Source: Cellvibrio sp.
GTDB lineage: Bacteria > Pseudomonadota > Gammaproteobacteria > Pseudomonadales > Cellvibrionaceae
Assembly: GCF_046347455.1 (NCBI RefSeq)
Contig: NZ_JAXMGC010000001.1
Span: 509,241 to 573,240 of the forward strand
Direction of reading: 5' to 3'
DNA length: 64,000 nucleotides
In this document: piece after piece, positions 1,111 to 29,257 of the stretch
How positions within the stretch are numbered: the stretch's first letter is position 1
Layout of the letters: each line of letters starts with the position of its first letter
Notes under the pieces: model-generated
Seen by the model: the letters and a program-made list of their open reading frames with translations, nothing else
Database searches by the model: none
Told to the model about the DNA's origin: nothing
Made by a program: the position numbers and the translations under genes

Positions 1111-1170
1111 GCGTATACCTGCTCTTTCCGTTATTCTTAGTTATTGAATACTAGGGAGAGCGTATACATT
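1111..1170. repeat. two direct copies of GCGTATAC (1111-1118, 1160-1167) in the recombinase operon leader
   Basis: Read directly. The second copy extends to GCGTATACATT (1160-1170), which is the exact reverse complement of AATGTATACGC at 28803-28813. Confidence 0.5.
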
Positions 1171-2412
1171 ATGAATTACTCAATCAGAACATTTATTGCC
1201 GCTGATAATGACAAAATGGCTGTCCTCATCAATGATGAGGGCAGCCCTTTTTTTTGGGCAAACATATTTGTCAACTCTCAATACCGAAATACAGGAAAAT
1301 CACATAACACTTGCATAAAAGTTTTAAGATCATTGGGGATGCTTTACGCTTGGGCATCAATCCAAACTACCATTAAAGATTTAGATCAACGCTTAACAAC
1401 GGGAGAATTTCTCAACACTGATGAAATTGAGGAATTAGCTATATTCCTTCGCTGTAATGCAGAGTCACAAAACGCATACTTAAAAAAATCAAAGAACAAT
1501 CACAGGAATATTATTTCCTCTGAAAAAATTAGATATGCTAGAGAAACGAAGCACAAATCTATCACTGCAGGTAACCGCCATGAAGGCGCTAGTCGTATAC
1601 GCTGGATAGCAATGTATCTGGAATATCATAAAAGAAGACGAGTCAGTAAATCTGATATCAACGCAAATTCATTGGAAATTTTTAAATCCCTTGCAGAAAC
1701 AAGTATTAATTACTTACGATCATTAACACCAAGGGTACATCCTGCTGAAGACGACGAAAATCTTGAAGGACTTGACAGGAAAATAGTTACTATAATTAAG
1801 GAAGCACTACACCCAGGATCACCAAAAAATCCATTTAACTCAAATTTTATTAAACACCGTAACCTCATTGTATGGCTCCTTTTTTATGATACAGGGGCCC
1901 GTAGAGATGAAATCAGAAATATTAAAATTGATGATATTGACCGAATTACATGCCACACACGCATAAGAATATCTAAAACCATTCCTCGCACAGTACCGCA
2001 CTCACAAGAACTCTCAGATAGATTTCATAGATATATTTTAGACTATTGGTCGAAATTGCCTTTATCAAGTCGCAAGAAAGGCTACTTGCTGACAACAGAA
2101 AAAGGCGCGCACTTATCTAATAATTCGATCAATAAAATATTTAAAAATATTCGAGAAAATATCTTAGAGGTGCCAAATTTTTTATCCCCTCACTCGATGC
2201 GACGTACATGGAATGACCGTTTCAGTGAAATGATTGATAATAATCCAAATAAAATTTCTTCCGAACAAGAACAACAAATGCGCAATCGACTTATGGGTTG
2301 GTCGGATAATTCTCGCGAAGCCATAAGATATGCAAAAAGGCATATTAGAAAATCTGCCGATTCACATGCAGAATATCTCGCAAACAACCCATGGCAGCAG
2401 GGAAATAATTGA
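1171..2412 (+). CDS. tyrosine recombinase / integrase, first of trio (GinA-like)
   Basis: ATG 1171 is preceded by GGGAGAG (1155-1161); an alternative TTG lies at 1144. Recombinase boxes: TGARRDE, HSMRRTW, RYAKRH. Stop TGA 2410-2412 overlaps the next ATG. Confidence 0.8.
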   Translation: MNYSIRTFIAADNDKMAVLINDEGSPFFWANIFVNSQYRNTGKSHNTCIKVLRSLGMLYAWASIQTTIKDLDQRLTTGEFLNTDEIEELAIFLRCNAESQNAYLKKSKNNHRNIISSEKIRYARETKHKSITAGNRHEGASRIRWIAMYLEYHKRRRVSKSDINANSLEIFKSLAETSINYLRSLTPRVHPAEDDENLEGLDRKIVTIIKEALHPGSPKNPFNSNFIKHRNLIVWLLFYDTGARRDEIRNIKIDDIDRITCHTRIRISKTIPRTVPHSQELSDRFHRYILDYWSKLPLSSRKKGYLLTTEKGAHLSNNSINKIFKNIRENILEVPNFLSPHSMRRTWNDRFSEMIDNNPNKISSEQEQQMRNRLMGWSDNSREAIRYAKRHIRKSADSHAEYLANNPWQQGNN

Positions 2413-3848
2413 TGAATCGTCAACCTATTCCAATACCGGAAAGTCTTGTGATGGAGCAAGAAGTTATTCTCTTGGACGGGAGAGCAGTATTAATAAAAGC
2501 AGCGAACGAGCAAACTTTTACCACATCAGATGCAGGCAATTTTATAATCCATCTTGCATGGCTAAACACAGGATATGTTGTTCATAAAAACTGGTTTAAA
2601 GGTATCTGTAATCTAGCTGCAACTCATAGCCTGACCTATTTAGCCGTAACTTCCCGCGGATTAAAAATTTGGAATGATGAACTTAATCTGGTCTCAGATG
2701 ATGAAATATCCATTAATTCGATTAACCTATTATCTAAAATCCCCTCAAGCTATCATCCCTTTATAGTTCCGTTTCTTCGTCGCCAAATTTCAACTGGCCT
2801 GAAAGGAATTGACGAAGAAACAAGAGAATTTCTCCTAAAGGACTACAAATGGGAAGAAAAAGGTAATGGTTCGTATTTTTCATTAATAACCAATGACCCT
2901 GAATGTGGCGCATTAACTGATCAAGAATTGCATAGTCTTCACACAGAGTTAAATTACGCATTCAGCACCAACAAAATTGACATTTCTGCGTTCGCACTTA
3001 CATGGATGTTTATTGCTACTGGACTTCGGCCAATTCAAATCGCGCGCATGAAAGTCAAAGATGTACAAATCTTGGAAGGGCCAGAAGGCAAAGAAGTCAA
3101 TCTGCGCGTGCCACTTGCAAAAGGCGAACAAACAGCAAAACAATCATATTGGTGGCGTCGTGCTCCCAGCGTATTAGCAGAAATACTGATAACCTATATT
3201 GAGCAGCTTCAGTTAAGCACCGAAAAATCACTTTTTGAAGGAGTCTCAAGCACTTTATCAAATCGAATCACGACACTGTTTGACAAACTAAATACTTGGT
3301 CAGATAGATTAGAAAGCACCATTCCCATTACACCTTATCGATTCCGCTATACATTCGCGACAAGAGCGCTTCGCCAAGGAGCGTCTGATATGGAAGTAGC
3401 TCGTTTGCTCACTCACCGCAGCACAAGCTGTATCCAATTTTACCGAGCTTCCATGCCAGAACTACAAGAACCTATTCGGGAAAAAATCGGCCAGGAAATG
3501 GATTATTTTGCGCGAGCATTTAGGGGTAAGTTAATTGCTGATATAAGTGAAGCAACTCAACAAGATAAAGGCGCGAGTTTAATAAGGGATTTTATGCATC
3601 TCACAGGACAACAATTAGGTGCGTGTGGAACCCAAGCCAAATGTTATCAAAATGCTCCAATCGCCTGCTTGACCTGCAGTTACTTTGAACCATTTCGTGA
3701 AGCCCCATGGAATCAACTATTAAGTAAGCTCGAGGAAGATCAATCCAAAGAGCGTGAAGATCGCATAAAAATGATTACCCAAAATGCAATTGATGCAACA
3801 AAAGAAATCATTAGTTTACGTGATTTAAAAGGGGAAAATACAAAATGA
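2412..3848 (+). CDS. tyrosine recombinase / integrase, second of trio (GinB-like)
   Basis: ATG 2412 overlaps the upstream TGA (TGATG). Motifs: ATGLRPIQI, YRFRYTFAT, LLTHRSTSCIQFY. Confidence 0.8.
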   Translation: MNRQPIPIPESLVMEQEVILLDGRAVLIKAANEQTFTTSDAGNFIIHLAWLNTGYVVHKNWFKGICNLAATHSLTYLAVTSRGLKIWNDELNLVSDDEISINSINLLSKIPSSYHPFIVPFLRRQISTGLKGIDEETREFLLKDYKWEEKGNGSYFSLITNDPECGALTDQELHSLHTELNYAFSTNKIDISAFALTWMFIATGLRPIQIARMKVKDVQILEGPEGKEVNLRVPLAKGEQTAKQSYWWRRAPSVLAEILITYIEQLQLSTEKSLFEGVSSTLSNRITTLFDKLNTWSDRLESTIPITPYRFRYTFATRALRQGASDMEVARLLTHRSTSCIQFYRASMPELQEPIREKIGQEMDYFARAFRGKLIADISEATQQDKGASLIRDFMHLTGQQLGACGTQAKCYQNAPIACLTCSYFEPFREAPWNQLLSKLEEDQSKEREDRIKMITQNAIDATKEIISLRDLKGENTK

Positions 3849-5878
3849 ATATAATCACTTCTTTTCAGGGACACGCCGAATTAACAGCCCAGCAAAATCT
3901 TGAGAAATTTATTCAGCACGCCAAACAAAATTGTCCTCTAGACAACGTAGATTGGAATAGCGATATATGGGACGTAACAGAAATATGTAAAAAAGGTTAC
4001 CAAGGAAAAGGGAAAGCGTATGTATATTTTAAATCAGCAACAGATACAAAAAATTCAACCAAAATTACTACACCACTTCAAGAGCCATTTAAAAGTTTTG
4101 CTAAAGCTACCTTTTCTGAATATTTGCGAAAATACAGACCGGTGGAATATAAACGTCCTTTGTATGCTCTACAAACTTTAGAGCAAGCACTTATTCATTG
4201 CAAACAAATTCCTTGCATTACGAATCTTTCTACAGATGTTCTTGATACAACCAGTATTTTTTTAAAAGAGCGCTATCAAGATCCTTGGTTACTCGGAAAA
4301 CAACTTGAGAAGATTATAATAAATTTCATAGAACCTGCTCGGCTAAGCAATCAATTTCTCGATTGGAAGTCTCCTTTTAAATATAAAACACCTACCCGCA
4401 GTGATCGAGTAAACTCGAATGGCAACCACGAAAAACTTCCATCAGTACAAACAATTTTAGCACTCGCAGAAATCCATAACTCTTCACTATATACTCCAGA
4501 CAAAATAACAACCAGCTGGGTATGTCTAGCAATGCACGCACCAAGCAGAGTGACTGAAATTTTATCACTTTCAGTAAAGTGTGTTGTACAAGCGCAAGGC
4601 CCTAATCAAGTGGCAATGGGATTACGATGGCACCCAATTAAGGGGGGGCAACCTATCACAAAATTTGCTCTTTCTGACAATGCCGCCGCTCTCACTCAGA
4701 GTGCAATTAACTATCTTATTGATATTGGAGCAAATGCTAGAAAGGCCGCATCGTGGTATGAATTAAATCCAGGGCAACTATATCTTCCAGAAGGATTTGA
4801 GCATCTTCGAGATCAACCATTAACTCTATGCGAAATAACTAAAATACTAGGAAGAAGAAACCTAATTAAGAGTTCTTTTGCTGCAGAGACATGTAAATTT
4901 ATCAACGTAGGATTGACTACTGATAAATCCCGTTTCAATGAAGCACAAAACACAACAAGTGCAGCCATTTATTGCTTTAAATCAGTTGAACGCTGGGTTA
5001 ACGCCCAACTTCCAAAATCATTTCCTATAATTTGTAAGGCTAGCAATCTTAAATACAGTGACGCTTTATTCACACTTCCTAAAAACATTTTCAGACCACG
5101 TGCCGATACACTCGAATATGTCCCAGACACTGTATCTGTCAGCCAGATAAACCATCAACTAGGCGCACATCCAGCTGGCCTCACTGTATTCTTCAGAAAC
5201 AATAAAATCGACGAGGACGGCAATCCTTTAGAAATTACTTCCCATCAATTTCGGCACTTTTTAAATACTCTCGCGCAATCCAAGTACCTCAACCAATCAT
5301 TGATAGCGCTGTGGTCCGGCAGAAGAGATGTTAGCCAAAACAAATGGTACAACCACGTACCTCAAGAGGCGTTTATCGAAGCCTATCGACTCCTGCAAGC
5401 AGACGTGCCTGAGCCCGCGATCGAAGGCCCATTGAATGAAAAAACTAATACTATTGCAGACATCAATTTAATTACCAAAGCCGACGCAATTAAGCATGAA
5501 TTAGGAGCTATTCACGTAACTAGATATGGACTGTGCCGGCACGATTATTCTCTGACACCCTGCCCCAAAGACAAAGATTGCATTAATTGTGGTGAGCACT
5601 TGTTTACGAAAGGAGATAGAGCTCAGCTAGAAGAAGCAGAGACTCAATTGCAATTACTTCAAAATGCAGTACGGATAGCAACAGAAGCTTTAGAGAATGG
5701 TGAGCCAGGTGTAGAACGATGGTTGGAATTAAATCGACCAAAACTGGAGCGCTGGAAGCTGGCAGTCCAAAAACTAAAAGATCCAAACATTAAAGATTCA
5801 ACACTTATATCACTACCTAAAGTCCCCATGAGCCAAACGAAGACTGGACTGGCTTTCGAGATAGCAATGCAGCCGTAG
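3845..5878 (+). CDS. large tyrosine recombinase / integrase, third of trio (GinC-like)
   Basis: ATGA start/stop overlap at 3845-3848. Motifs: APSRVTEIL, SHQFRHFLNT, GRRDVSQNKWYNH. A Cys cluster (CRHDYSLTPCPKDKDCINCGEH) sits near the C-terminus. Confidence 0.8.
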   Translation: MNIITSFQGHAELTAQQNLEKFIQHAKQNCPLDNVDWNSDIWDVTEICKKGYQGKGKAYVYFKSATDTKNSTKITTPLQEPFKSFAKATFSEYLRKYRPVEYKRPLYALQTLEQALIHCKQIPCITNLSTDVLDTTSIFLKERYQDPWLLGKQLEKIIINFIEPARLSNQFLDWKSPFKYKTPTRSDRVNSNGNHEKLPSVQTILALAEIHNSSLYTPDKITTSWVCLAMHAPSRVTEILSLSVKCVVQAQGPNQVAMGLRWHPIKGGQPITKFALSDNAAALTQSAINYLIDIGANARKAASWYELNPGQLYLPEGFEHLRDQPLTLCEITKILGRRNLIKSSFAAETCKFINVGLTTDKSRFNEAQNTTSAAIYCFKSVERWVNAQLPKSFPIICKASNLKYSDALFTLPKNIFRPRADTLEYVPDTVSVSQINHQLGAHPAGLTVFFRNNKIDEDGNPLEITSHQFRHFLNTLAQSKYLNQSLIALWSGRRDVSQNKWYNHVPQEAFIEAYRLLQADVPEPAIEGPLNEKTNTIADINLITKADAIKHELGAIHVTRYGLCRHDYSLTPCPKDKDCINCGEHLFTKGDRAQLEEAETQLQLLQNAVRIATEALENGEPGVERWLELNRPKLERWKLAVQKLKDPNIKDSTLISLPKVPMSQTKTGLAFEIAMQP

Positions 5879-5928
5879 ATTATTAACAGTTCTCAATTTT
5901 TTAAAGATAAAAATATAGGTATATTCTA

Positions 5929-6321
5929 ATGGGCGCCCCAAAACTCAATGACAAAAATATTGAAAAAGCTGTAGAACTACTTGATGGCTGGACAGGAAAG
6001 TTAACATGGGAAAGATATCTAGCAATATTAGCTACTCAAATCAATCACAAGTACACCAAAGCTGCAATGCTTCGTCACGCTCGAATTAAAGATGCTTGGG
6101 ATCATGCAAAGAATAGATTACAAAGCACACCACAAGAAGGAGGATATGGCAACGCAGCTCTCAAGCAAGCAAAAGATAGAATCCACGAACTAGAAGAGCG
6201 AACCGCTCGACTAAAACGTGAAAATGATAAATTATTGGAACAATTTGTAAGGTGGGCTAATAACGCAATTCGTAAAGGACTATCCCTGGAAGACCTTGAT
6301 CAGCAAACTCCACGCCGCTGA
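5929..6321 (+). CDS. small helical protein following the recombinase trio (GinD-like position)
   Basis: 130 aa, same strand, 50 nt after the third recombinase. The C-terminal half looks coiled-coil (RIHELEERTARLKRENDKLLEQF). I recognise no catalytic motif. Confidence 0.55.
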   Translation: MGAPKLNDKNIEKAVELLDGWTGKLTWERYLAILATQINHKYTKAAMLRHARIKDAWDHAKNRLQSTPQEGGYGNAALKQAKDRIHELEERTARLKRENDKLLEQFVRWANNAIRKGLSLEDLDQQTPRR

Positions 6322-6384
6322 TTAAATTAATAAGTTGCATCCATTGCTAACTAATGAGAATAAGTTAGCCAGAGTAAGCAACAA

Positions 6385-6636
6385 CTAGTTTTCCTCCCCA
6401 AGGGATTGAATTAATAGTGCTAGCCCTTCATGCGGATCTGCGCCTAACACCTGGCAGTATTTTACAAACTCCAGCAACTCAATTTTCTTTCGGCGTTGTT
6501 CTATCTTGCCCACAATCGAGTGATGGCGATTCATGATTTCGGATACTTCGCGCTGCGAGTAGCCACTCTTTCCTCGCTGTTCTTTCAGCCAAGTCTGGAG
6601 TTTTTCATAGTGAGGTGAATAAGGAGAGGATTTCAT
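6385..6636 (-). CDS. XRE-family helix-turn-helix transcriptional regulator
   Basis: 83 aa with an HTH signature (GYSQREVSEIMNRHHSIVGKIEQRRKKIELLEF). Divergent from the 6686-9599 operon across only 49 bp. Confidence 0.8.
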   Translation of the reverse strand: MKSSPYSPHYEKLQTWLKEQRGKSGYSQREVSEIMNRHHSIVGKIEQRRKKIELLEFVKYCQVLGADPHEGLALLIQSLGEEN

Positions 6637-6658
6637 TGCCCGGATGATAGAGACCGGC

Positions 6659-6679
6659 TAGAATGGCGCGAAATTCGCG
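6659..6679 (+). promoter_or_regulatory. candidate -10 (TAGAAT 6659-6664) followed by a 13-bp palindromic operator CGCGAA-A-TTCGCG (6667-6679)
   Basis: Perfect 6-bp inverted arms with a 1-nt centre, read directly in the 49-bp divergent intergenic region between the XRE gene and the helicase operon. Confidence 0.4.
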
Positions 6680-6685
6680 GCACAA

Positions 6686-7237
6686 ATGATAATTATTCCT
6701 ATGAAAGAGATTGCTTTGAAGTCTGAAATACTTGATGTATTGAAAGATATTAGTGTTACTTCATTTACGGTGGATGAGCTTACAGAGACTTACCTACAAC
6801 ATCCTTCAAGCTTGCATACGTCAAAAAAAGCAGCTCGGCAATTTGTATATCGTAATATGCAAAGGTTGATGAAAGTGGGTTATATGGAGCGTTTAAAAGC
6901 AGCTGGTAGATGGCCGCATTACGCGTTGACGCAGCAATTTATCCAGCTGTACAAAGCTACCCCCTCAGTCGCAATATCACCTTTTCCATCTGTAGATACA
7001 GATGCTGTGCAATTGAATACTGATCCACTGGCAAGCCTTAAAGAAAGACTAAAAGTACATCAAGCGGAAGTCTTGACTGCGATGGGCGAAATGGAGGAAT
7101 ACGAAGCAATTTGCCAAGAGATGCCAGATTTGCGTGAGATTGCTCAACCACGCTATAACGAGTCGCGCGAGCGTTGTTCACGATTACTGGGACGAGTAAA
7201 AGCATTGGAGAGCTTATTGGTAACAGAAGCGGGTTAA
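6686..7237 (+). CDS. hypothetical protein; possible winged-helix N-terminus plus coiled-coil C-terminus
   Basis: 183-aa ORF. The N-terminal segment RQFVYRNMQRLMKVGYMERL...GRWPHYALT resembles a recognition helix plus wing. The stop lies 2 nt before the helicase ATG. Start is uncertain (6686 or 6701). Confidence 0.5.
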   Translation: MIIIPMKEIALKSEILDVLKDISVTSFTVDELTETYLQHPSSLHTSKKAARQFVYRNMQRLMKVGYMERLKAAGRWPHYALTQQFIQLYKATPSVAISPFPSVDTDAVQLNTDPLASLKERLKVHQAEVLTAMGEMEEYEAICQEMPDLREIAQPRYNESRERCSRLLGRVKALESLLVTEAG

Positions 7238-7239
7238 TT

Positions 7240-8652
7240 ATGCGTCTGCGCCAGTGGCAGTCAAACTGCATTCGTAAAGCCTTAGTTCAATACACCAGTG
7301 GTCATCATCACTTCCTTTGTTTAGCAACGCCTGCCGCTGGAAAAACGCGAATGGCCGCCACACTGGCGGGATTACTGCTCCAAAAAAATAAAATTGATTT
7401 GGTTCTGTGCTTTTCTCCCTCCGTTATAGTCGCGACGGATTTTCAAAGTGCACTAGAACAACAAGTCCAATTGCCGATGGATGGTCGCTTGGGATCAAAG
7501 GGACAGTCGCTGACTTACCAATCCATGTTGACTCAGGATGAAAAATTTTGGTCATTGTTCGATAGGTACCGCATATTCGCTATCTTTGATGAGATTCATC
7601 ATTGTGCAGGCGATTCAGCAGACAATACCAATGCTTGGGGTCACCAAATTATTGAGCGCATTCAAGGGCGAGCCGCGTTTACTTTAGCTTTGACGGGTAC
7701 ACCCTGGCGTTCCGACCGTATTCCTATTTCCTTGGCAAATTACACATTAGAAGACAAAGTTCACTGCGACTTCGTATACGGGTTACGAGATGCGGTTAAG
7801 GATAATGTGTGTCGCGCTCCGGTGATTACGCTGGTGGATAATGATCGCATTCACATTCATCAAGGAAGTGAGGAGCAGATATTTACGTGCTTTGCTGACC
7901 TCCTGAAGCAGTCTGATTGTTCCTATCAGGAACTCATCAGAAACGAGGCATTAATTACCTATCTATTGGAGCAATCTTCAAAGAAGCTGCGTACGTTGCG
8001 CAAACAACACGCTGACGCTGGTGGGCTGATTGTGGCCGCCTCAGTGGAACACGCCTACAAGATTGCGGATATTTTGCAGCGTCGCTTGGGTGAAATAGCC
8101 GTGATTGCCACTTACATGGGCGAGAATCCGCAAGCCGCGATTACGACGTTCAGGGCGAGTAACGAACCCTGGATCATATCTGTTGGTATGGTGAGTGAAG
8201 GTACCAATATTCCTCGCTTGCGAGTGTGCTGTCATTTAACTCGCGTTAAAACTGAGCTGCATTTTCGACAAGTGTTGGGACGTATTTTACGCATGGATGG
8301 TATTCACCCTGGTGATAGCTACTTGTACGTTCCAGCTGAGCCCAGCTTGGCTGAATATGCCGGACGTATCATTGAAGAAATTCCAGACGCAGGCACCCTC
8401 CGTCGCGATGTTATGCCTTCGTTGTTGGTTGCAGACGATGTATCAAAACCCCAGGCTCAAAGTGAGCCGCCCAGTACTGAGATGGAACGATTGCATTTTG
8501 ATTTTGATAGTGCGCCATCTCCTTCAGTTGCGTCACAGGACATCAATCCAGCTCCACAAGGCACATTACTCGCAACCTATTACGAAGCCAATATCAATAT
8601 GTTTGGTCGTTTCCGGCAAGAATTGCTCACATTACAACGGCTCTGCGCCTAA
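7240..8652 (+). CDS. superfamily-2 DEAD/DEAH-box helicase (type III restriction Res-like core)
   Basis: Walker A ATPAAGKT, motif II FDEIHH, motif III LTGTPWR, motif VI QVLGRILR. ATG 7240 lies just after the upstream stop, so the 7174 start in the ORF track is an overlapping extension. Confidence 0.8.
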   Translation: MRLRQWQSNCIRKALVQYTSGHHHFLCLATPAAGKTRMAATLAGLLLQKNKIDLVLCFSPSVIVATDFQSALEQQVQLPMDGRLGSKGQSLTYQSMLTQDEKFWSLFDRYRIFAIFDEIHHCAGDSADNTNAWGHQIIERIQGRAAFTLALTGTPWRSDRIPISLANYTLEDKVHCDFVYGLRDAVKDNVCRAPVITLVDNDRIHIHQGSEEQIFTCFADLLKQSDCSYQELIRNEALITYLLEQSSKKLRTLRKQHADAGGLIVAASVEHAYKIADILQRRLGEIAVIATYMGENPQAAITTFRASNEPWIISVGMVSEGTNIPRLRVCCHLTRVKTELHFRQVLGRILRMDGIHPGDSYLYVPAEPSLAEYAGRIIEEIPDAGTLRRDVMPSLLVADDVSKPQAQSEPPSTEMERLHFDFDSAPSPSVASQDINPAPQGTLLATYYEANINMFGRFRQELLTLQRLCA

Positions 8653-8661
8653 GGTATTTCC

Positions 8662-9081
8662 ATGAAAGCTCCGACTGATGCCATTCAAGAAGTGGCTGGT
8701 ATGCTTTACGAAACTGGAATCTTTTGTGACTTTGGTATCGATGAATCACTTTTGCCTGCCATGATTGATATGGCAAAAACACGCTACCCCAACAGAGCTA
8801 TTAGGGCTGTTAAGAGCTGGATGTGGTGGGACTTTGAAGTATCAGAGGAAACTCGTGGTCTTTTCCAAGAAAATGGAATACAGCCAGCTATCGTTTTTGC
8901 TCATTATTTGATTTGGGACAGCAGCAGGCGTTTCCAAGAAGGTTGGAATGTCAAAACCACGGCATTGGTCAGGTTTGAAGAAAACTGTTTTTTTATAACG
9001 CGTAATACCGCCTATATTCTAGTGGGCAAAGGACATCGGAAAACTGTCGATCCGCAAGCAGCAGCAAGCTTGCATTTCTAA
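8662..9081 (+). CDS. hypothetical protein (139 aa), no recognisable motif
   Basis: ORF starts 10 nt after the helicase stop on the same strand. No antisense gene competes for the region. Confidence 0.5.
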   Translation: MKAPTDAIQEVAGMLYETGIFCDFGIDESLLPAMIDMAKTRYPNRAIRAVKSWMWWDFEVSEETRGLFQENGIQPAIVFAHYLIWDSSRRFQEGWNVKTTALVRFEENCFFITRNTAYILVGKGHRKTVDPQAAASLHF

Positions 9082-9122
9082 AGCGTAATGATGCTTGTGG
9101 ATGACTTAAATATCAGGACTTT

Positions 9123-9599
9123 ATGATGGTATTACCTCCGATTCTGGATTTTGAAGCAAGCAGTTTGTCCGACACCAGTTATCCCATAAGCGCAGGATTG
9201 GTTGTCGCGGGACAGGTTTATTACTGGGTTATCAAACCACGAGCTGATTGGATTGATTGGTCACTTGAAAGTCAGGCTATTCATGGGCTAAGGCGCTCGT
9301 TTATCGAAGAGCATGGTATTCCTGCTCATCAGGTGTATGCAGAAATAACAGAAAAACTGAATGGGCATGAGGTCATCTATTCTGATGCCCCGGCGTGGGA
9401 AAGTTTATGGTTGCAGCGGCTGGGAGTATTCAATCTTCGCATCGCTGACATTGGTGAACTAATCGGCAATGACCAGCGCGCGAGCTTTTCCAGTGAGCTT
9501 ACCAAGACCTTCGAAAACAATAAATTAACGCAACATCGTGCGGATCACGACGCTTGGGCCATAGCGTTAACAGTGGAAAAATTGCTCAAGAATAAATAG
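9123..9599 (+). CDS. DnaQ-like DEDDh 3'-5' exonuclease (small, stand-alone)
   Basis: Exo I DFEAS, Exo II YSDAPAWESLWL, Exo III HRADHDA (H-x4-D). 158 aa. Confidence 0.7.
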   Translation: MMVLPPILDFEASSLSDTSYPISAGLVVAGQVYYWVIKPRADWIDWSLESQAIHGLRRSFIEEHGIPAHQVYAEITEKLNGHEVIYSDAPAWESLWLQRLGVFNLRIADIGELIGNDQRASFSSELTKTFENNKLTQHRADHDAWAIALTVEKLLKNK

Positions 9600-9731
9600 T
9601 TCGGACGGTTAAATATAAACACTGGACACTAAGCCAACTACAGCATCATGATGCAACAAAAGCTCAGGTGAAATCATCATTTGACACGTACCAATGAGAT
9701 TTTTGCCTTTGCTTAAGTCAACCAACAACTA

Positions 9732-10010
9732 TCACTCACTATCAGGACTACTTGCGCACTTCTTGCTGCTGCACTCACTTTGGGGGGATGGGCAACAATG
9801 TTTCCTTGCTTGGTACTTGCGATAAAGTAGATATCCAAGGCCGAATAAAAAAAGTGGCAGAACGCATTTCAGTATCTCAGTTGTAGTGCTACTCAGTAAG
9901 AGCGTCAGTCCTGCACCTCCAACGAATAAGGAGTACAGGGGGACACTACAACAACCAACACAGGCGATAATCGCAGCAATGGTTAGCCATACAGACTTGG
10001 GCTTATTCAT
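9732..10010 (-). CDS. MerF-like two-TM metal transporter with vicinal cysteine pairs
   Basis: ATG 10010 is preceded by AAGGAG. 92 aa with two hydrophobic helices. There is a CC pair in TM1 (CVGCCS) and in the tail (RKHCCPSP), the same layout as MerF. It sits under a MerR-type promoter. Confidence 0.55.
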   Translation of the reverse strand: MNKPKSVWLTIAAIIACVGCCSVPLYSLFVGGAGLTLLLSSTTTEILKCVLPLFLFGLGYLLYRKYQARKHCCPSPQSECSSKKCASSPDSE

Positions 10011-10047
10011 ACAAAACTCCTTTGGGTTGTGTTTTACAGGTACATTA

Positions 10048-10078
10048 AGGATAAAATCTGTAGTAGCTACAGATGCAA
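10048..10078 (-). promoter_or_regulatory. MerR-type promoter: -35 TTGCAT, 19-bp spacer containing the dyad CTGTAG-N3-CTACAG, -10 TATCCT
   Basis: Read on the minus strand. -35 is at 10078-10073, the dyad at 10058-10072 and -10 at 10053-10048. An over-long 19-bp spacer carrying a dyad is the hallmark of MerR-family regulated promoters. Confidence 0.6.
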
Positions 10079-10101
10079 GCACTTTGCGGAGGGAAATTTA
10101 G

Positions 10102-10515
10102 ATGACAGGAATTGGCGCACTATCACGCGAGACTGGATGCCATATTGAGACTATCCGGTATTACGAAAAACTGGGCTTACTACCTGAGCCGCAACGCACT
10201 GGCGGAGGCCATCGCCTTTACACGAAAAAGCATGAGAAGCGACTAGGATTTATTTTAAAAGCCCGTGGGTTGGGCTTTACTCTGGATAACACTAGAGAAT
10301 TATTAAGCTTATCGGAAAACACCGAGCGATCATGTGCTGAGGCATTAGAGCTAGTAGAAGCCAATCTCACTACCGTAAACGAAAAACTGGCGGAACTTCA
10401 GCGCATTAAAGATTCATTATTGGCAATGGCGCAAAGCTGCAAATGCTGTTGTCCTGGCACCAAAGCTCCTGATTGCACTATTGTTGATACCCTCTACAAC
10501 AAACACAACGAATAA
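10102..10515 (+). CDS. MerR-family heavy-metal-responsive transcriptional regulator
   Basis: N-terminal [27 protein letters not shown], a coiled-coil dimerisation helix, and a C-terminal Cys cluster [13 protein letters not shown]. Confidence 0.85.
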
Positions 10516-12647: not shown

Positions 12648-12938
12648 TTAAATTGGCTTACCACAACCTGAACAAAACTTCGCTCCCGCTTGAACTTGAG
12701 AATTGCAGGATGCACAGATTTTTTCACCAAGACCGGTACCACATTGCTGGCAAAAGCGTGAATTGGGAGAGTTGATACTATTACACGAAGGGCAAGCGAC
12801 CCCATTTGGCCCTTGAGTGGTGGGCGGATAATTGGAGGGTCCATAATTGCCGCCATGATGCCCACGCCCATGAGATCCTCCATGACCACCACCGTGATGT
12901 CCACCTAAATTATTAAAAAGATTTTTAAAAAAACTCAT
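12648..12938 (-). CDS. Gly/His-rich double zinc-ribbon protein
   Basis: ATG 12938 follows a GAGG motif. N-terminus GGHHGGGHGGSHGRGHHGG, followed by two CxxC...CxxC ribbons (CPSCN..CQQCG and CASCN..CSGCG). Confidence 0.6.
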   Translation of the reverse strand: MSFFKNLFNNLGGHHGGGHGGSHGRGHHGGNYGPSNYPPTTQGPNGVACPSCNSINSPNSRFCQQCGTGLGEKICASCNSQVQAGAKFCSGCGKPI

Positions 12939-13001
12939 GAGATTGCCTCGTATTGGTTGAATGGCACATACCATCAATTTAAATAACATTTTTGTGAAAA
13001 T

Positions 13002-14449: not shown

Positions 14450-14845
14450 TTAATCGCCACGAATGGCTGTCTTTAAACTTTTAAATTCATCGTTTAAAAA
14501 TTCAAAGCTCGCTTGAAGAGCCAACGCGTTTTTCATATATTCGGCGTGCTCGATTTGATCCTCAACAGTATTTCCATCAATGGATGCCTGCTGTGGTGTG
14601 CGATACAACAGCTGACTCTCTGATCCACTTTCTGTTTCAATTTCAAAATGACGTGGATTGGTTTGGGCAGCAGACATTCTGCTTTCGACTTCCTGCCTGA
14701 GAATACTTTTAAAATCCAAATCTCTTGCTTTGAAATTGGGTGTATCAATATTGGCCAAATTATCGGCTAACACTGCCGCTCGCTGACCGCGCAAACGCAA
14801 CGCTCTTTCGTGCAACCCTAACGCTGATTCAAATGAAATTGTCAT
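14450..14845 (-). CDS. flgB: flagellar basal-body rod protein FlgB, full length and out of flagellar context
   Basis: The N-terminus (MTISFESALGLHERALRLRGQRAAVLADNLANIDTPNFKARD) and the C-terminus (DGNTVEDQIEHAEYMKNALALQASFEFLN) match the FlgB pattern. No flgC follows. Confidence 0.8.
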   Translation of the reverse strand: MTISFESALGLHERALRLRGQRAAVLADNLANIDTPNFKARDLDFKSILRQEVESRMSAAQTNPRHFEIETESGSESQLLYRTPQQASIDGNTVEDQIEHAEYMKNALALQASFEFLNDEFKSLKTAIRGD

Positions 14846-14875: not shown

Positions 14876-15085
14876 TCAAAGCTTGTTAATACCATCCTGA
14901 GTTTTTTGCTCTACACGTTTTGCATGGTGATGATGGTGATGAGCCTTAGGGTCAGCGGTAATCACCCTGTATAGATCAATCAAAAACATACACAATAAAA
15001 CGGCGAGAACGAATAAAACGGGTTTGGTCTTAAATACGCTTTTTTCTACAGGCTTTGTAGATAATTTTTTTCGGGTGGATCTCAT
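14876..15085 (-). CDS. small single-TM protein with an HHHHHH tract
   Basis: 69-aa ORF between the ATPase and flgB on the same strand. It has a basic N-terminus, one hydrophobic helix, then PKAHHHHHHAK. Confidence 0.4.
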   Translation of the reverse strand: MRSTRKKLSTKPVEKSVFKTKPVLFVLAVLLCMFLIDLYRVITADPKAHHHHHHAKRVEQKTQDGINKL

Positions 15086-24242: not shown

Positions 24243-25349
24243 ATGGATCAATTGATGAATGAAAAACAGCCTTTTCGGGTCTTATGTCTTGACGGTGGAG
24301 GAATGCGCGGTGTTTACCAGTCCGCGTATTTAAACACTTTCGCATCAAGACTTGCTGGTTTAGATGGTGGAAAAACAATAGACGTTGGCAAGAGCTTTGA
24401 TCTCATTGTAGGAACAAGTACAGGAGGAATAGTTGCCTGCGCGTTGGCCGCTGGAGTGCCATTACAGCAGGTTCGTGATCTTTATTACAAAGAAGGTCAT
24501 AAAATTTTCCCCCATCAATTTATTCGCCATATTCCATTACTTGGAAGCCTTGCTATAAGAGGGCTTGGCATTGGTTTATCCGCAGGTAATGACGCTCTGA
24601 AAGCTGCGCTTAATACTGCTTTTAATACTCAAACAGTTGATGAAGTCTATAAAAAACGAGGAATCGCATTTGCAATTCCTACATTAGATATCAATAGACA
24701 TTCTGCCGTCGTTTTTAAAACCCACCACCTATCTCGTTTAAATGGACGTGATAACTCCCGAACATTAGTCGATGTTTGTCTTGCAACCTCAGCAGCACCA
24801 ATGCTTCGCTCTATGGCCAAACTCATCGAACCTAGTAGTGCAGGAACGTCAACAACCGCTGTGTACATAGACGGCGGATTATGGGCAAACAATCCAGGCG
24901 CTCTTGGAATGATTGAAGCGTGTGAAATTCTTCAAGATAGAAACGAAGTTCGACCTATCCATTTATTTATGTTGGGATCTTTACCCTCCCAAGGAGGCGA
25001 AGAAATTTCCGATGCAAAACTACATCGAAATTCGTTTGGTTGGGGAGTAGGTATAAAAGCTATTGAAGCAAGTCTTAATGCTCAAGCTGTTGGCTATGAT
25101 TATATTTCATCGAAAATTGCATCACTTCGAAACGATGGAAGCTTTGCATATCGAATGCCCGCGCAATGCCCCTCAAATGAACTTAGAAACTATTTAAAAA
25201 ATTTAGATGACGCACGACATAAAGCACTGAATGCGCTGGAACGTCAAGCAATATCCGATGTGGATTGGGCTTGGGCGCAAATGAATACTACAAATCCCAC
25301 GAATCGCATGCAGTCTTTCAGGGATGCATTGATGACTACACTTAATTAA
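24243..25349 (+). CDS. capV: CBASS effector: patatin-like phospholipase (CapV-like)
   Basis: Oxyanion motif DGGGMRG, nucleophile elbow GTSTGG, and catalytic Asp in [11 protein letters not shown]. Confidence 0.85.
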
Positions 25350-25362
25350 ACAAAGAGGACTG

Positions 25363-26412
25363 ATGCAAATGGCAGAGATAGATTGTAATAAAGACTTACG
25401 CGCTTACCACAATGAAAAAGTTACATTGGGTAAATCCGATCAAGATACGATGCGTAGTCGTCGCGATTCTGGCCGCACACGTTTACGAAATGGTTTAACC
25501 AGACTAGAGAAACCAGTACCAGAAAAAATTGAATCTCAAGGCTCCTACAGCATGAAAACCATGGTGCAGGATGACGCATGTGAATATGACATTGATGATG
25601 GGGTTTACTTCAAACCCGAAGATCTCACGTGGCTAGTTGTTTTTGAGCTATCACCCGCAGATGCACGTGCTCGTGTTTGTGAAGCACTGTCGGATGATGA
25701 GCGTTTGAAAAGTCCCGCTGAAGTGAAACGAAATTGTGTGCGCCAAACTTATCCGCAGGGTTACCATATCGACTATCCCGTTTACCGAATCAAAACAGAA
25801 ACAAACAGCGATGGAAATGAAGAAGAATATTTTGAATTAGCAAGCGGTGATGACTGGGTTCGATCAGATGCACGAGCAGTTACGAGTTGGTTTAATGGTC
25901 ACGTGACCAACCTTAATTCCGGTGAGGTTAATGACGGTAGCCAACTACGTCGAGTTGTAAGATACACAAAAAAGTTTGCACGTAGCGTAGCTGACTGGAA
26001 AGAAAAAACAGCATCAGGCATAACTATTACAAAGTTAGTTGTTGATTATTTCCAGTCGAGCGATGGCAGAGATGATCTTGCTATTCGAAATACTTGGAAA
26101 GCCATAAAGAAAGCTTTAGATGCTTCCACTGAAGTAAATCATCCCGTATTAAAAGACACAAAACTATCAGGAAAAGATGATGACGCAGTAACTTTTTTCA
26201 AAGATAAATTAGCTTGGGCACTCAAAGAACTCAATGTGCTCGATGAAAAGGATTGTTCGCATAAAAATGCGTTAGAAGCCTGGGATATAGTTTTTAGTGC
26301 TTCTTTTTTTGCAGCACGAGCTACAGAAGATACCAAGTCTCAGAAGTCAGCTTTTGTGGTAACACCCTCAAAAGTTTCAGAGCGTAATGATGATGGTGGT
26401 CGATTCGGTTAA
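25363..26412 (+). CDS. CBASS cGAS/DncV-like nucleotidyltransferase (CD-NTase)
   Basis: Pol-beta NTase signature QGSYSMKT...EYDIDDG with a later HIDYP acidic site. The C-terminus ends GGRFG. It lies between the patatin and Cap2 genes. Confidence 0.8.
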   Translation: MQMAEIDCNKDLRAYHNEKVTLGKSDQDTMRSRRDSGRTRLRNGLTRLEKPVPEKIESQGSYSMKTMVQDDACEYDIDDGVYFKPEDLTWLVVFELSPADARARVCEALSDDERLKSPAEVKRNCVRQTYPQGYHIDYPVYRIKTETNSDGNEEEYFELASGDDWVRSDARAVTSWFNGHVTNLNSGEVNDGSQLRRVVRYTKKFARSVADWKEKTASGITITKLVVDYFQSSDGRDDLAIRNTWKAIKKALDASTEVNHPVLKDTKLSGKDDDAVTFFKDKLAWALKELNVLDEKDCSHKNALEAWDIVFSASFFAARATEDTKSQKSAFVVTPSKVSERNDDGGRFG

Positions 26413-28118
26413 TGAATCCAAGTCAATCACTGCTCGTACAAAATATTGGAGCTGTTTTAAATAGCCAATTACCGGCGCGTTGGTCATTAGTTCCTACAAC
26501 CAACGCGCCCAGTATTAAACGGTCTTTAAATCTGCTTGCGGCAATATGGCGTGTCGAGTTTATTGAGGGTGATATTACATACCCAAATGTTACCCATCTT
26601 TTTGTTGCTATCGACAATCAGTATCCTAGAACTCAGCCAATAATATGGCTGCCTCAATATGTGCATGGGAAAAGTAAACGTTGGCCGCACATCGATATTT
26701 ATGGAAATCTTTGTCTTCCTAAATCATCTATGGCAGACGATCCTGCTCAGCGAGTTATTCAGCATCTTGCGTGGGCACAAAGCTTGTTAAACATGGATCC
26801 CATTAATAGACGCAAGGATTTTGCGAGAGAAGCTGCTGCTTATTGGGATCAAGCTCACGATAACAAAGAAAAAATTTATAGCCTGCTCTCTCTTAATGCA
26901 GAAAGCCGTTTAATCGTTTACTCAGTAGATAATCATCAAACTTTTTTTGCTGCAGATACCCCTGAAGAGCTTACTCAATACTTAAAAAATCTTCGTAGTA
27001 CCGAGAAATCAGCACAAATTTATCCAGGTTACCTATTATGGTTGGATAGTCCTTGGCTCCCGGATGAATTTCCCGTATTTGGTAGCGATCTATTAAATTT
27101 AATTCCTAAAAATATATTAGATCAAATACTGGTGGCCGGAAGAGACTGCTTAATTGTTATAGGGGCAAAAACTGACAATGGAATTATTTTTTTGGCATCG
27201 TTATTAAGAAGTCAAAAACTATCGGAAGCCATGCGAGGTTTTAGAACAACCTCAAAACTTCCTACTATGCTTGTCCATAAAGCTTTTACTACAAAAAAAA
27301 TTCTTAAAGCCAATGTGTCTAGAATTGATGGAGCTTGGGTGCATGGACGAGATCATGATCCAAACTATGAAACTTTACATCACAAAAAAGTGGTGATATG
27401 CGGATGCGGTTCGTTAGGTGCATCGGTAGCCCGGTTACTAGCGCAAGCTGGGGTGGGTACAATTCATTTAATCGATAATGATACAGTTGCATCTCATAAT
27501 GCATCGCGTCATATATTAGGCGTGGGAAGCTCTGGTGCGAGCAAAGTAACATCACTACGAAAACTTTTGCTTGCTGATTTTCCTCACATGTTAGAAGTTA
27601 CTGCACATCATAAAAAATTTGAAACATTAACGCAGCAAGAATTGGAGCTGATACAAGGTGCCGATGTAATTGTGAGCGCCGGTATCGATATTTCAGGGGA
27701 CTTATTTTTGGATGAATGGAGAAGAACTCACAGCAATGAATCAGTACATGTTTGCGCATGGGCAGAAGCTTTTGCCGTTGCAGGACACGCCGTCGCCTTA
27801 TTTAATGACGATAGTGTGAGCGCTATGTTTGATGAAAATATGGAGATTATTTTTAGGTCATGCGACGTTCCCGAAAGCGCGAACCATTTAGTTGCTATGG
27901 CAGGTTGTGGTGATGTATTTCAGCCACATGGTGCTATCGAACTTCAGTCAACCGTCAATATTGCAGCTCGAATTGTTATTGATATCCTTATGAATAAAGT
28001 TGCAAATTCAACGCGACGAACTTGGTTTGGAAATCGAGATGAAGCATTGCAGCGTAATCTAATACCTAGAGCAGACTTTAATGATGATTCATGTATTAAA
28101 GACTTTCCATGGCACTAA
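26412..28118 (+). CDS. cap2: CBASS Cap2: E2-like plus E1 (ThiF/UBA-like) fusion
   Basis: The ATG overlaps the CD-NTase stop (TAATG). N-terminal E2-like HIDIYGNLCLP. E1 Rossmann motif ICGCGSLGASVARLLAQAGVGTIHLIDND. Confidence 0.85.
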   Translation: MNPSQSLLVQNIGAVLNSQLPARWSLVPTTNAPSIKRSLNLLAAIWRVEFIEGDITYPNVTHLFVAIDNQYPRTQPIIWLPQYVHGKSKRWPHIDIYGNLCLPKSSMADDPAQRVIQHLAWAQSLLNMDPINRRKDFAREAAAYWDQAHDNKEKIYSLLSLNAESRLIVYSVDNHQTFFAADTPEELTQYLKNLRSTEKSAQIYPGYLLWLDSPWLPDEFPVFGSDLLNLIPKNILDQILVAGRDCLIVIGAKTDNGIIFLASLLRSQKLSEAMRGFRTTSKLPTMLVHKAFTTKKILKANVSRIDGAWVHGRDHDPNYETLHHKKVVICGCGSLGASVARLLAQAGVGTIHLIDNDTVASHNASRHILGVGSSGASKVTSLRKLLLADFPHMLEVTAHHKKFETLTQQELELIQGADVIVSAGIDISGDLFLDEWRRTHSNESVHVCAWAEAFAVAGHAVALFNDDSVSAMFDENMEIIFRSCDVPESANHLVAMAGCGDVFQPHGAIELQSTVNIAARIVIDILMNKVANSTRRTWFGNRDEALQRNLIPRADFNDDSCIKDFPWH

Positions 28119-28141
28119 AACTATGGAGTTAACCATTATTT

Positions 28142-28615
28142 ATGTTGGAGCTTAAAGCGGTAAATAGTAGCTTTACACAAAGTGTGTCAATACAAGCACA
28201 AGTTATTAAGTATCTTTCACAACATCGTCAATTACATGCAAGAAGTTTGGAGGCTGGTGGGCAATTATTTGGAGTCGTAGATCCAGATTCAATTATTATT
28301 ACCTGTGCTACAGGTCCTTACTCAAAAGACGACCGCGGTCCACGTCACTATAGATCTGATGCGATGAGCGCTCAGTCTGAAATTAAGCAACAAGCAAAAT
28401 TTGGTAATGTGTATTTAGGTGAGTGGCATACCCATGCCGAAAAAGTACCTAGAGCTTCTGGGCACGATATTGATGCAATGAGACGATTAATGAAGAGTTC
28501 CAATCTCGCCACAAATGGTTTGTTGATGGTTATTTTAGGTCAGGGATTGGATAAGGGGGGAATAAGTGTTTACTCGTACATGGATGGAAAGCTTCTCCAT
28601 TGGGATATTGAGTAA
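28142..28615 (+). CDS. cap3: CBASS Cap3: JAB/JAMM isopeptidase
   Basis: Upstream Glu (LEAGGQLFG) and an exact JAMM motif H-x-H-x7-S-x2-D in WHTHAEKVPRASGHD. Confidence 0.85.
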   Translation: MLELKAVNSSFTQSVSIQAQVIKYLSQHRQLHARSLEAGGQLFGVVDPDSIIITCATGPYSKDDRGPRHYRSDAMSAQSEIKQQAKFGNVYLGEWHTHAEKVPRASGHDIDAMRRLMKSSNLATNGLLMVILGQGLDKGGISVYSYMDGKLLHWDIE

Positions 28616-28932
28616 TCATTGCGAAAGCTTGCATATGGCTAATTTAAAAGCTATTAGATAGCTAAGTAATCAAAATTATTTATGGCATATATCTAGTGCT
28701 TCAAAAATATTATAACACCACATGTTGTGCCCAAAGGATACTTCCAATATAGTGCCTATCAAAGCGGATACTTTAGTCAAAAATATTAATGAAAAAATAT
28801 TCAATGTATACGCTATATGATTTAGAGGCAGCTTTATTACTCACATTATATTGATTTATAAGGACATTTTATAATGTATACGGATTTGCGTTAGATATAA
28901 TGCCAGTAAAGTTCTTGCATAGCCCAGCAGCA
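28616..28932. repeat. ORF-free AT-rich island tail containing several short repeat families
   Basis: TCAAAAATATTA occurs twice (28701-28712, 28777-28788). GTGCC..AAAG(C)GGATACTT occurs twice (28727-28743, 28752-28773). AATGTATACG occurs twice (28803-28812, 28873-28882). Confidence 0.6.
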
Positions 28933-28942
28933 AGATGATAAA

Positions 28943-28971
28943 GGCGACTTTCGAGTCGCCTTTTTTATTTT
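28943..28971 (+). terminator. rho-independent terminator, probably the displaced nrdA terminator
   Basis: Stem GGCGACT, loop TTCG, stem AGTCGCC, followed by TTTTTTATTTT. Confidence 0.6.
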
Positions 28972-29118: not shown

Positions 29119-29133
29119 GCGCCCACTTTCTTT

Positions 29134-29220: not shown

Positions 29221-29257
29221 CATTAAACTGACAACTACCAATGTCGGTTAAACAAAA

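Follow-up and report, generated by a model that had tools for sequence, protein, structure and literature searches.

What a small cassette of regulatory and helicase genes does on a mobile island is the question raised by a locus in a Cellvibrio genome. The stretch of DNA analyzed here, called the window throughout, comprises 64,000 nucleotides of contig NZ_JAXMGC010000001.1 (positions 509,241 to 573,240). The locus, close to its left end, holds a gene for an XRE-family helix-turn-helix (HTH) protein and, transcribed divergently from it, genes for a winged-helix protein, a superfamily 2 (SF2) helicase, a protein of the DUF6957 family, and a DEDDh exonuclease. A previous reading of the letters alone (the sequence-only reading) had taken the last four genes as one unit and as a candidate for an uncharacterized defense or island-maintenance system. 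We find that the status of a candidate is reasonable but that the unit was drawn too wide and that the VspR-like identity of the winged-helix protein had been missed. The conserved unit is the trio of XRE, VspR-like, and helicase genes, and the cassette is best classed as a regulated helicase-based candidate defense module on mobile elements.

Results

The conserved unit is a trio

An open reading frame (ORF) check confirmed the five genes as well as the divergent control region (Table 1), and rereading the sequence gave the same gaps of 2, 9, and 41 nt between the genes of the rightward operon as had been reported. The gene sizes given were also correct, except that the helicase has 470 and not 471 residues. 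An ORF of 183 codons for the winged-helix protein does exist from the start at 6686, but the start is probably at 6701, since the homologs begin at the second methionine (MKE...); the protein would then have 178 residues, and the spacer to the XRE gene, 49 bp with the upstream start, would be 64 bp.

Table 1. Positions of the cassette, its control region, and other features discussed (window coordinates unless a locus is named)
Feature	Position	Strand	Remarks
XRE-family HTH gene	6385-6636	-	83 aa, divergent; probable operator-binding controller of the cassette
Divergent control region	6637-6682		Between XRE and VspR-like genes
Operator O1	6637-6655		Window TGCCCGGATGATAGAGACC; family consensus TGTCTCGATGATAGAGACA
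-10 box TAGAAT	6659-6664		
Operator O2	6664-6682		Window TGGCGCGAAATTCGCGGCA; consensus TGTCGCGAAATTCGAGACA
Perfect palindrome CGCGAAATTCGCG	6667-6679		Inside O2
Putative VspR-family winged-HTH gene	6686-7237	+	178 aa from the likelier start at 6701; 183 aa from 6686
SF2 helicase/translocase gene	7240-8652	+	ATG at 7240; 470 aa
DUF6957 gene	8662-9081	+	139 aa
Stand-alone DEDDh (DnaQ-fold) 3'-5' exonuclease gene (predicted)	9123-9599	+	158 aa
Recombination module, GInt/SE-type island	1144-6321	+	Directly upstream of the cassette
Tyrosine-recombinase-fold genes	1144-2412, 2409-3848, 3845-5878	+	Overlapping
Coiled-coil protein resembling GinD/Srap	5929-6321	+	130 aa
Type II CBASS operon	24243-28615	+	CapV / DncV-like / Cap2 / Cap3; Pfam Patatin, DncV-like_NTFase, ThiF, Prok-JAB
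tRNA-Leu	29134-29220		Chromosomal; right boundary of the island region
flhB	from 29324		Chromosomal flagellar export genes resume at ~29.1-29.3 kb
Hydrolase genes 3' of the helicase in other clades	L043:11455-12069, L063:11393-12226, L026:11492-12232		Same strand as the helicase

A scan with a profile of the helicase, using one representative genome per species, gave 443 relatives in Gamma- and Betaproteobacteria, and 80 loci were fetched. Gene neighbors were counted by hidden Markov model searches of the ORFs in the 74 loci having at least 1 kb of upstream sequence. The VspR-like gene adjoins the start of the helicase gene in 72 of these 74 loci and is naturally fused to it in one more, and a divergent XRE gene is present in 71. 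The stop codon of the VspR-like gene overlaps or abuts the start codon of the helicase gene across the loci, and the two genes appear to be translationally coupled. When pairwise identity matrices were compared over 69 loci, those of the VspR-like protein and the helicase correlated with an r of 0.88, whereas the matrix of the XRE protein correlated with either of them with an r of only 0.39 to 0.45; the VspR-like protein and the helicase therefore behave as one unit, with the XRE protein as a looser controller. Thus, in other genomes, it is the trio that recurs, while the four genes proposed as a unit occur together only in near relatives of the window: DUF6957 and the exonuclease are confined to a narrow clade, and both are found solo elsewhere. 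Several diverged copies of the cassette, each with its own operator type, can be present in a single genome, as seen for the locus pairs L037/L041 and L079/L080 and on the contig of the window.

The fusion lies in a gammaproteobacterial metagenome-assembled genome (L008:4666-6672, protein P0041), where one ORF of 668 aa joins VspR_N, VspR_C, and the helicase. No other fusion was seen, and this one could be a rare true fusion or an artifact of assembly or a frameshift.

A VspR-like protein and an SF2 helicase

All of the 120 listed VspR-like homologs (of 123 found) carry precomputed Pfam matches to both VspR_N (PF27213) and VspR_C (PF27192), among them the representative of a 92%-identical cluster (P0121) and the 178-aa protein of L090, and a homolog on a Vibrio plasmid is annotated as "transcriptional regulator VspR." Judged from these precomputed matches and this one depositor annotation, the winged-helix protein of the window appears to belong to the VspR family, which comprises 489 clusters at 50% identity. 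The AlphaFold2 model (pLDDT of 78 overall) has a winged HTH at residues 13 to 90, a disordered linker, and a helical hairpin at residues 114 to 182 with a pLDDT of >90, in agreement with the winged-helix N terminus and C-terminal coiled coil that had been suspected. The top Foldseek matches of the model are winged-helix proteins of the PadR, MarR, and Fur types (E of ~5e-3) and of the AspA type.

The helicase matches Pfam ResIII (6.8e-10) and Helicase_C (2.4e-5) above the cutoff. Its core motifs are intact, as had been claimed: motifs I, II, III, and VI (GKT, DEIH, TGTPWR, and QxxGR) are invariant across an alignment of 16 homologs, the invariant residues being G34-K35-T36, D117-E118-I119-H120, T154-P155-W156-R157, and Q344/G347/R348. 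A disordered stretch at about residues 380 to 440 is followed by a conserved C-terminal helix. In PHROGs the helicase matches phrog_16 (1.1e-29), and its best profile matches in the PDB are XPBII (3.3e-8), RadD (1.6e-7), and UvsW (3.2e-4), with Rad25 also among the nearest. It shares with this branch the RecA1/RecA2 cores with DEIH and the lack of a nuclease domain, and RadD is also its NCBIfam match. However, it scores far below the cutoffs for orthologs, with 35.9 bits against a cutoff of 720 bits for the RadD equivalog NF053632, and we detected in it neither the zinc-finger and C-terminal domains of RadD nor the damage-recognition and thumb domains of XPB. On these scores, the helicase is a relative of RadD but not a RadD ortholog.

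The control region and its probable repressor

The XRE protein matches Pfam HTH_3 with 24.6 bits (cutoff, 23) and also HTH_31, and it has weak PADLOC matches to HTH_VI and "Control_protein." The control region of the window contains a promoter-like TTGCCC-17-TAGAAT and the exact palindrome CGCGAAATTCGCG, which occurs only once in the 64-kb window. Both the TAGAAT box and the palindrome had been read from the letters, and both lie within about 50 bp of DNA with hardly any variation across 28 loci from more than 10 genera, including Salmonella, Cellvibrio, Zhongshania, Microbulbifer, Spongiibacter, and Undibacterium, while the proteins encoded there are merely 50 to 60% identical. This conservation is far above chance and points to functional DNA. 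The consensus of the 28 loci reads CAT-TGTCTCGATGATAGAGACA-ag-n-TAGAAT-G-TCGCGAAATTCGAGACA and holds two inverted repeats with common half-sites, O1 between the -35 and -10 boxes and O2 just past the -10 box.

Natural variants point to the protein that reads these repeats. In Undibacterium, O1 and O2 are altered together (TGTCTCG to TGTAGCG and GAGACA to GATACA), and the recognition helix of the XRE protein changes with them from RHHS to AHFT; the lineage of the window likewise has its own variant in the operators as well as in the XRE protein. In contrast, the recognition helix of the VspR-like protein differs between loci that share one operator type. This argues that the XRE protein, and not the VspR-like protein, is the operator binder. 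We infer that XRE is an autoregulator of the cassette and that the target of the VspR-like protein, whatever its nature, is probably not O1 or O2. In other clades of the cassette, the -10 box is overlapped by perfect palindromes of quite another sequence, CGGATTATAATCCG and ACTTAGATTGTCTAAGT among them. No copy of the cassette operator was found upstream of the operon for CBASS (a system of antiphage signaling based on cyclic oligonucleotides) or elsewhere in the island of the window, and the idea of an operator common to the cassette and CBASS was dropped.

Known defense systems follow VspR-like genes elsewhere

XRE/VspR-like pairs are found on GInt (ginABCD) and SE (intA-tfp-intB-srap) elements, the architectures of which have been described (PMC5385486, PMC10214605). 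Three loci have such a pair without the helicase: the SE-6283 element on plasmid pSEA1, Vibrio parahaemolyticus pHLA, and the pandemic island VSP-I of Vibrio cholerae. On pSEA1 of Vibrio alfacsensis 04Ya108 (L093:11657-12531), the divergent HTH/VspR-like pair stands two genes from srap, which is itself annotated as "bacterioferritin comigratory protein" on that plasmid.

On pHLA (L094:4255-11236), the genes for IetA and IetS follow directly after the VspR-like gene (PADLOC, 3e-98 and 2e-277). The locus thus has the divergent XRE/VspR-like pair with a defense operon (IetAS, Gao_Iet) right behind the VspR-like gene but differs from the cassette in that the payload is an ATPase and an S8 protease instead of a helicase, and its VspR-like protein is a distant relative (1.3e-19 to the profile). 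The pair on pHLA has a defense-type operon on either side; the one on the XRE side encodes a CARF_ADA-like adenosine deaminase, a noncanonical NTP pyrophosphatase, and a ThsA-like SIR2 protein, a set of three that has no name.

Orthologs of tfp and srap have been placed at 186,481-188,169 and 183,957-184,388 of chromosome I of V. cholerae N16961 (Idola et al. 2023, Additional file 3). In VSP-I, VC0176 encodes an HTH regulator, VC0177 encodes VspR, and VC0178-0181 form a CBASS operon; VspR is a regulator that binds and represses this adjacent locus, a repressor role known in the family for VC0177 only. The likeness to the window thus extends to a divergent small HTH regulator, to a VspR-family protein heading a rightward operon, and to CBASS of the type found in the island of the window, although in VSP-I capV follows vspR, whereas in the window and most of the family an apparently translationally coupled SF2 helicase gene does. 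The CBASS operon of the window lies 15 kb from the cassette and lacks the cassette operator. Set against the coordinates of VSP-I (VC0175-VC0185), the interval 183,957-188,169 is most consistent with a position inside this island, which we take as a lead only. If this placement of tfp and srap holds, VSP-I would be an SE-type element, with a multirecombinase module like the island of the window, and its layout would be HTH<- vspR-> CBASS-> <-srap<-intB<-tfp<-intA, mirroring the XRE<- VspR-> helicase-> <-srap... of the Salmonella and Escherichia coli elements. A link between VSP-I and SE elements was not found in the searched parts of the SE paper's main text and of the VSP-I review.

The helicase therefore sits where validated antiphage systems sit elsewhere, and the presence of CBASS and IetAS in this same position after VspR is the strongest indirect argument for a defense-type role.

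No named system matches the cassette

Scans of all the proteins with PADLOC v2.0.0, NCBIfam, and PHROGs gave no match to a named system, which agrees with what the sequence-only reading had concluded. Hachiman, Gabija, Shango, and Pbe gave only weak, generic matches to the helicase core (PbeA, 1.9e-7; GajB, 3e-3), and no PADLOC v2.0.0 model matched the VspR-like or DUF6957 protein. The cassette shares with Hachiman HamAB, Gabija GajAB, Shango, PbeABCD, Druantia, and DISARM the mobile, defense-island neighborhood and the SF2/SF1 ATPase core, but their partner proteins (HamA/DUF1837, GajA, SngA/B, PbeB-D, DruH, and others) are absent from it. The small HTH controller at a promoter palindrome recalls controller-protein restriction-modification (R-M) systems, but the trio has no nuclease or methylase. 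The VspR-helicase cassette was found in no PADLOC v2 model, in no Pfam family description, and nowhere in the literature searched.

DUF6957 and the exonuclease are lineage-specific add-ons

The 139-aa protein, in which no motif had been recognized, belongs by its match (4.9e-33) to Pfam DUF6957, for which 24 homologs were found and no mention was found in the literature searched. Its AlphaFold2 model (pLDDT of 71) gave no meaningful Foldseek match to solved folds; the DNMT1 RFTS domain was rejected as a likeness with a TM score of 0.30 and a root mean square deviation of 12 Å. The 158-aa protein matches the PADLOC DEDDh model PDLC01247 at 2e-7 (residues 7 to 149 against model positions 2 to 136 of 139) and phrog_192 at 8.8e-6. 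It has no match to Pfam RNase_T at an E of <=0.1, and searches of PDB sequences with it and with DUF6957 gave no match. The Exo I, II, and III motifs (D-x-E ... D ... H-x4-D) can be read in it as LDFEAS, YSDAP, and HRADHD, and the protein is probably a DEDDh exonuclease, for which a DnaQ-like fold would be expected.

The DUF6957 gene follows the helicase gene only in the window, L087, L090/L091, and L035, and the exonuclease gene follows DUF6957 only in the first three of these, as L035 has DUF6957 without the exonuclease. Of the 80 genome loci, L035 alone has DUF6957, and L033 alone has the exonuclease, as a fragment. Near relatives with the full five-gene arrangement have helicases 79 to 93% identical to that of the window (L087, 79%; L090/L091, about 90%), and L090/L091 are syntenic with the island of the window, while L092, with a helicase identity of 72%, has only the trio and neither add-on. 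Elsewhere, DUF6957 stands solo in an island for copper resistance and in Tn7-like cargo, where BrxR and a type III restriction system adjoin it. Members of the exonuclease family are small genes that stand by themselves on plasmids of alphaproteobacteria and Pseudomonas; no homolog of the exonuclease was found in phages. DUF6957 and the exonuclease are thus lineage-specific add-ons of a narrow Cellvibrio-like clade.

A second, diverged copy lies on the contig of the window but outside the window, with genes for a VspR-like protein, a helicase (79% identical to that of the window), DUF6957 (65%), and a 160-aa exonuclease, and it has a twin from a metagenome (L087:2-2911). In L087, the opposite strand carries a gene for a 1740-aa RHS/YD-repeat toxin about 1.3 kb downstream.

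In other clades, the genes after the helicase include ones for an NT5C-type 5'-nucleotidase, an IMPase-family (inositol-monophosphatase) protein, and a calcineurin-like phosphoesterase. Together with the DEDDh exonuclease of the window, they may represent a recurring nucleotide or oligonucleotide hydrolase accessory, although the sample is small.

Carriers and neighborhoods of the cassette

The sequence on the 3' side of the helicase gene varies widely among loci, and the window and the neighbors in related loci show the mobile-element and defense-rich surroundings that had been expected. Carriers include 54 plasmids, among them IncHI2 plasmids and Pseudomonas megaplasmids. Cellvibrio japonicus Ueda107 is another native carrier (homolog P0028). 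No copy of the cassette was found on E. coli chromosomes, and only two plasmid fragments matched there. GInt/SE-type elements carry the trio in the window, L001 (Salmonella), L063 (L063/64), L069, L085, L086, and L095, and the named carriers with such an element beside the cassette are E. coli pWL297-blaNDM-6, which has CBASS too, and Vibrio pMAO6. A lead toward SGI1, with its S023/S024 helicase/exonuclease pair, was dropped, as the context of the Salmonella homolog is an SE-like element and not SGI1. Among the 80 genome loci, SE/GInt core genes are within 10 kb of the cassette only in L063/64 and L069. As the majority of loci are not near any such element, the relationship is one of frequent carriage and not of dependence.

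Within 10 kb, type I R-M genes were found in 13 of the 80 loci and Tn3-family transposase genes in 9, and in L030 a Tn7-like TniQ/TnsD gene stands at the downstream position of the helicase. Tyrosine recombinases and SprT-like, SIR2, UvrD, and AAA_23 proteins are further neighbors at this distance, and a type IIG restriction enzyme, AbiEi, SIR2 proteins, and CBASS are also seen as defense neighbors.

On Pseudomonas aeruginosa pPA942-IMP45 (L123:4516-14369), genes for a type IIG restriction-methyltransferase, a DEAD/DEAH helicase, and a GIY-YIG nuclease lie next to the trio on one side, and genes for a BPSL0761-family protein and an AbiEi-type antitoxin lie on the other. A contig classed among viruses in IMG/VR (IMGVR_UViG_3300003962_000175; L095:1832-9346) has three recombinase-sized genes, a small gene, and then XRE<- VspR-> helicase->; this is the layout of the window, and the contig is therefore probably an integrative island and not a virus.

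The host island

The window begins with the 3' end of nrdA, followed by the recombinase operon. The claim that the module stands directly after an integrase operon in a CBASS-carrying island held up, with the three-recombinase operon upstream and CBASS farther to the right. The recombinases match Pfam Phage_integrase at 1.1e-11, 3.3e-10, and, weakly, 2e-3; each protein of the recombination module shares 24 to 26% identity with the corresponding one of the Salmonella set; none gave a BLAST match to SE-6283. The island resembles GInt/SE elements in having three tyrosine-recombinase-fold genes and a small coiled-coil protein gene at its end with cargo right after the fourth gene and in the XRE/VspR pair, which is also present in SE-6283 and in the Salmonella, E. 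coli IncHI2, and Vibrio plasmid elements; it differs in that the cassette is cargo and not core. A search for the ends of the island gave only chance-level matches between 1020-1160 and 28600-29340, and no convincing att sites or terminal repeats were found.

Besides CBASS, the remaining cargo consists of MerR, P-type ATPase, and CzcCBA-type efflux genes. Within this metal-resistance cargo, an ORF for a FlgB-like (flagellar rod) protein (14450-14845, minus strand) adjoins a sensor kinase gene, at a long distance from the flagellar operon, which begins at about 29.3 kb; the ORF is kept in the syntenic L090. Two small histidine-rich ORFs of the same block (12648-12989 and 14876-15085, both minus strand), one with GGHHGGGHGGSHGRGHHGG and Cys-x2-Cys pairs and the other with a run of six histidines, probably encode metal-binding proteins.

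Discussion

We regard the locus as an XRE-gated VspR-helicase cassette, with lineage-specific add-ons, that may serve in defense or in conflict between mobile elements, and we put the probability of this reading at roughly 45%. In such a model, a dimer of the XRE protein would bind O1 and O2, which overlap the divergent promoters, and keep the rightward operon shut, in a manner akin to the controller proteins of R-M systems or to a CI-type switch. Upon derepression, or upon entry into a cell without the XRE protein, the VspR-like protein and the helicase would be made together and act as a two-component unit, with the former giving DNA recognition or control and the latter ATP-driven translocation or unwinding on foreign DNA. 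The action on invading DNA, as phage or plasmid defense or as competition between mobile elements, would benefit the carrier element, and in the Cellvibrio lineage the DEDDh exonuclease could degrade 3' ends exposed by the helicase. More speculatively, as the sequence-only reading had suggested, an Orn-like exonuclease of this kind might act on oligonucleotide signals. Repression by XRE, the physical interaction between the VspR-like protein and the helicase, the target, and the defense phenotype are all parts that we infer.

Several observations weigh against such a role. No nuclease, toxin, or other evident effector is encoded in the trio, and a bare SF2 helicase is an unusual stand-alone defense effector. 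The experimentally mobile SE-6283 has the XRE/VspR pair without a helicase, and VspR may therefore be only a regulator. The correlation between the VspR-like protein and the helicase could reflect linkage and not physical interaction, and no VspR-helicase fusion was found among the 150 best VspR representatives. The excess of type I R-M genes, present in 16% of the 20-kb neighborhoods and thus tens of times the expectation at 1 to 2 copies per genome, is only a rough estimate. Moreover, Czc/Cus heavy-metal efflux genes are found within 10 kb in 13 to 15 of the 80 loci, as commonly as defense genes, and the association may therefore be with mobile cargo generally. In sequencing runs, the sequence of the window locus was found only in DNA from wastewater and aquatic metagenomes and in no RNA.

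Some of these points would fit with a regulatory and DNA-housekeeping module in which XRE and VspR silence cargo and the helicase is a RadD/XPB-like accessory of repair or recombination that would aid the element or its host in tolerating DNA damage or resolving intermediates of recombination, with no immune effector involved. VspR is a documented repressor in VSP-I, the pair without a helicase on SE-6283 and the frequency of metal resistance in the neighboring cargo are as expected for such a module, the nearest characterized helicases (RadD, XPB, and UvsW) are repair and recombination enzymes, and one locus adjoins an imuA-imuB-dnaE2 cassette and an SRAP gene. We nevertheless consider it unlikely, if by no means far-fetched, given the RadD score far under the equivalog cutoff, the lack of a cassette operator upstream of the CBASS operon or elsewhere in the island, and the validated defense systems that take the same position after VspR. 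The multiple diverged copies per genome with their own operator types also fit element-specific or immune modules better than general repair. A function in replicating or processing the excised island had also been offered by the sequence-only reading; in such a module for the circular island, the VspR-like protein would be a winged-helix initiator, and the helicase would unwind the origin or aid copy-out. This function gains no support here, because no iterons were found: the region 5800-10200 has no iterons or tandem array, and its direct repeats are scattered and at chance level. A winged-helix protein and a helicase do recall initiator-helicase pairs, copy-out is the proposed origin of the nicked double-stranded circles that are the intermediates of SE elements, and the XRE/VspR pair is the first or second cargo by ginD/srap in the window, L001, L063, L086, L093, and L095, although other genes, about 3 kb in all, separate the two in L085 and L069. 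On the other hand, the four SE core genes suffice for recombination between attL and attR, SE-6283 moves without the helicase, few of the 80 genome loci have an SE/GInt core nearby, and the trio also occurs near Tn3-family transposases and on plasmids with their own replicons. SF2 XPB-like helicases are not known as replicative helicases, and we hold such a function to be quite improbable.

Stabilization of the element in the manner of a toxin-antitoxin system, where an unregulated helicase, with or without the exonuclease, would be toxic and restrained by XRE and/or the VspR-like protein so that loss is penalized, seems to us to have an equally slim chance. The small XRE protein at a strongly conserved operator would be consistent with tight autoregulation, the cassette is carried on plasmids and islands, and XRE has weak matches to antitoxin-type HTH models (HipB-like, 1.9e-3, and "Control_protein"), but these matches are far under the family cutoffs, no known toxin domain is present, and the XRE gene is divergent, whereas classical type II pairs have the antitoxin gene upstream in the same operon. 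The least probable of the explanations, to the point of being hardly credible, is a degraded regulatory-replication block of a prophage or satellite. This explanation had been another offer of the sequence-only reading. The divergent XRE/operator layout, which resembles that of a phage immunity region, the match of the helicase to phrog_16, and the relatives encoded on 28 viral contigs could be cited for it. It is without support because phages have only distant, larger helicases without a VspR partner: those on viral contigs are about 580 to 690 aa long and 25 to 35% identical, and only one deposited phage genome has a relative, with 33% identity. The sole "viral" contig with the trio is the three-recombinase island described above, the neighborhoods that were annotated or scanned with Pfam showed no phage gene for structure or packaging, and all genes are intact in a unit conserved across the 443 relatives.

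The candidate defense or conflict cassette, our preferred reading, can be extended to a broader proposal that we find rather doubtful. The VspR family with a swappable XRE protein would mark a modular defense position and head interchangeable immune payloads there, with the helicase as by far the commonest and CBASS and IetAS as others; on carriers of the SE/GInt type, this position would adjoin the recombination module. The VspR-helicase pair would then be a new two-component DNA surveillance system, and the V. cholerae VspR, known so far only as a repressor of CBASS, would be a derived member of a family that usually has a helicase as its partner.

In conclusion, if the cassette is an immune or conflict module, it would be a widespread system that lies outside all PADLOC models and is present also on clinically relevant IncHI2 plasmids and on Pseudomonas megaplasmids. 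The cassette also links three subjects that tend to be treated apart, the VspR protein of the pandemic island VSP-I, the poorly understood SE/GInt elements, and defense gene cargo, and it suggests the rule that the gene after a VspR homolog is a defense payload. The two-operator region and the natural variants of the XRE protein would offer ready-made orthogonal repressor-operator pairs. If the cassette instead serves the DNA transactions of its element, the SE/GInt class would gain its first identified accessory factor.

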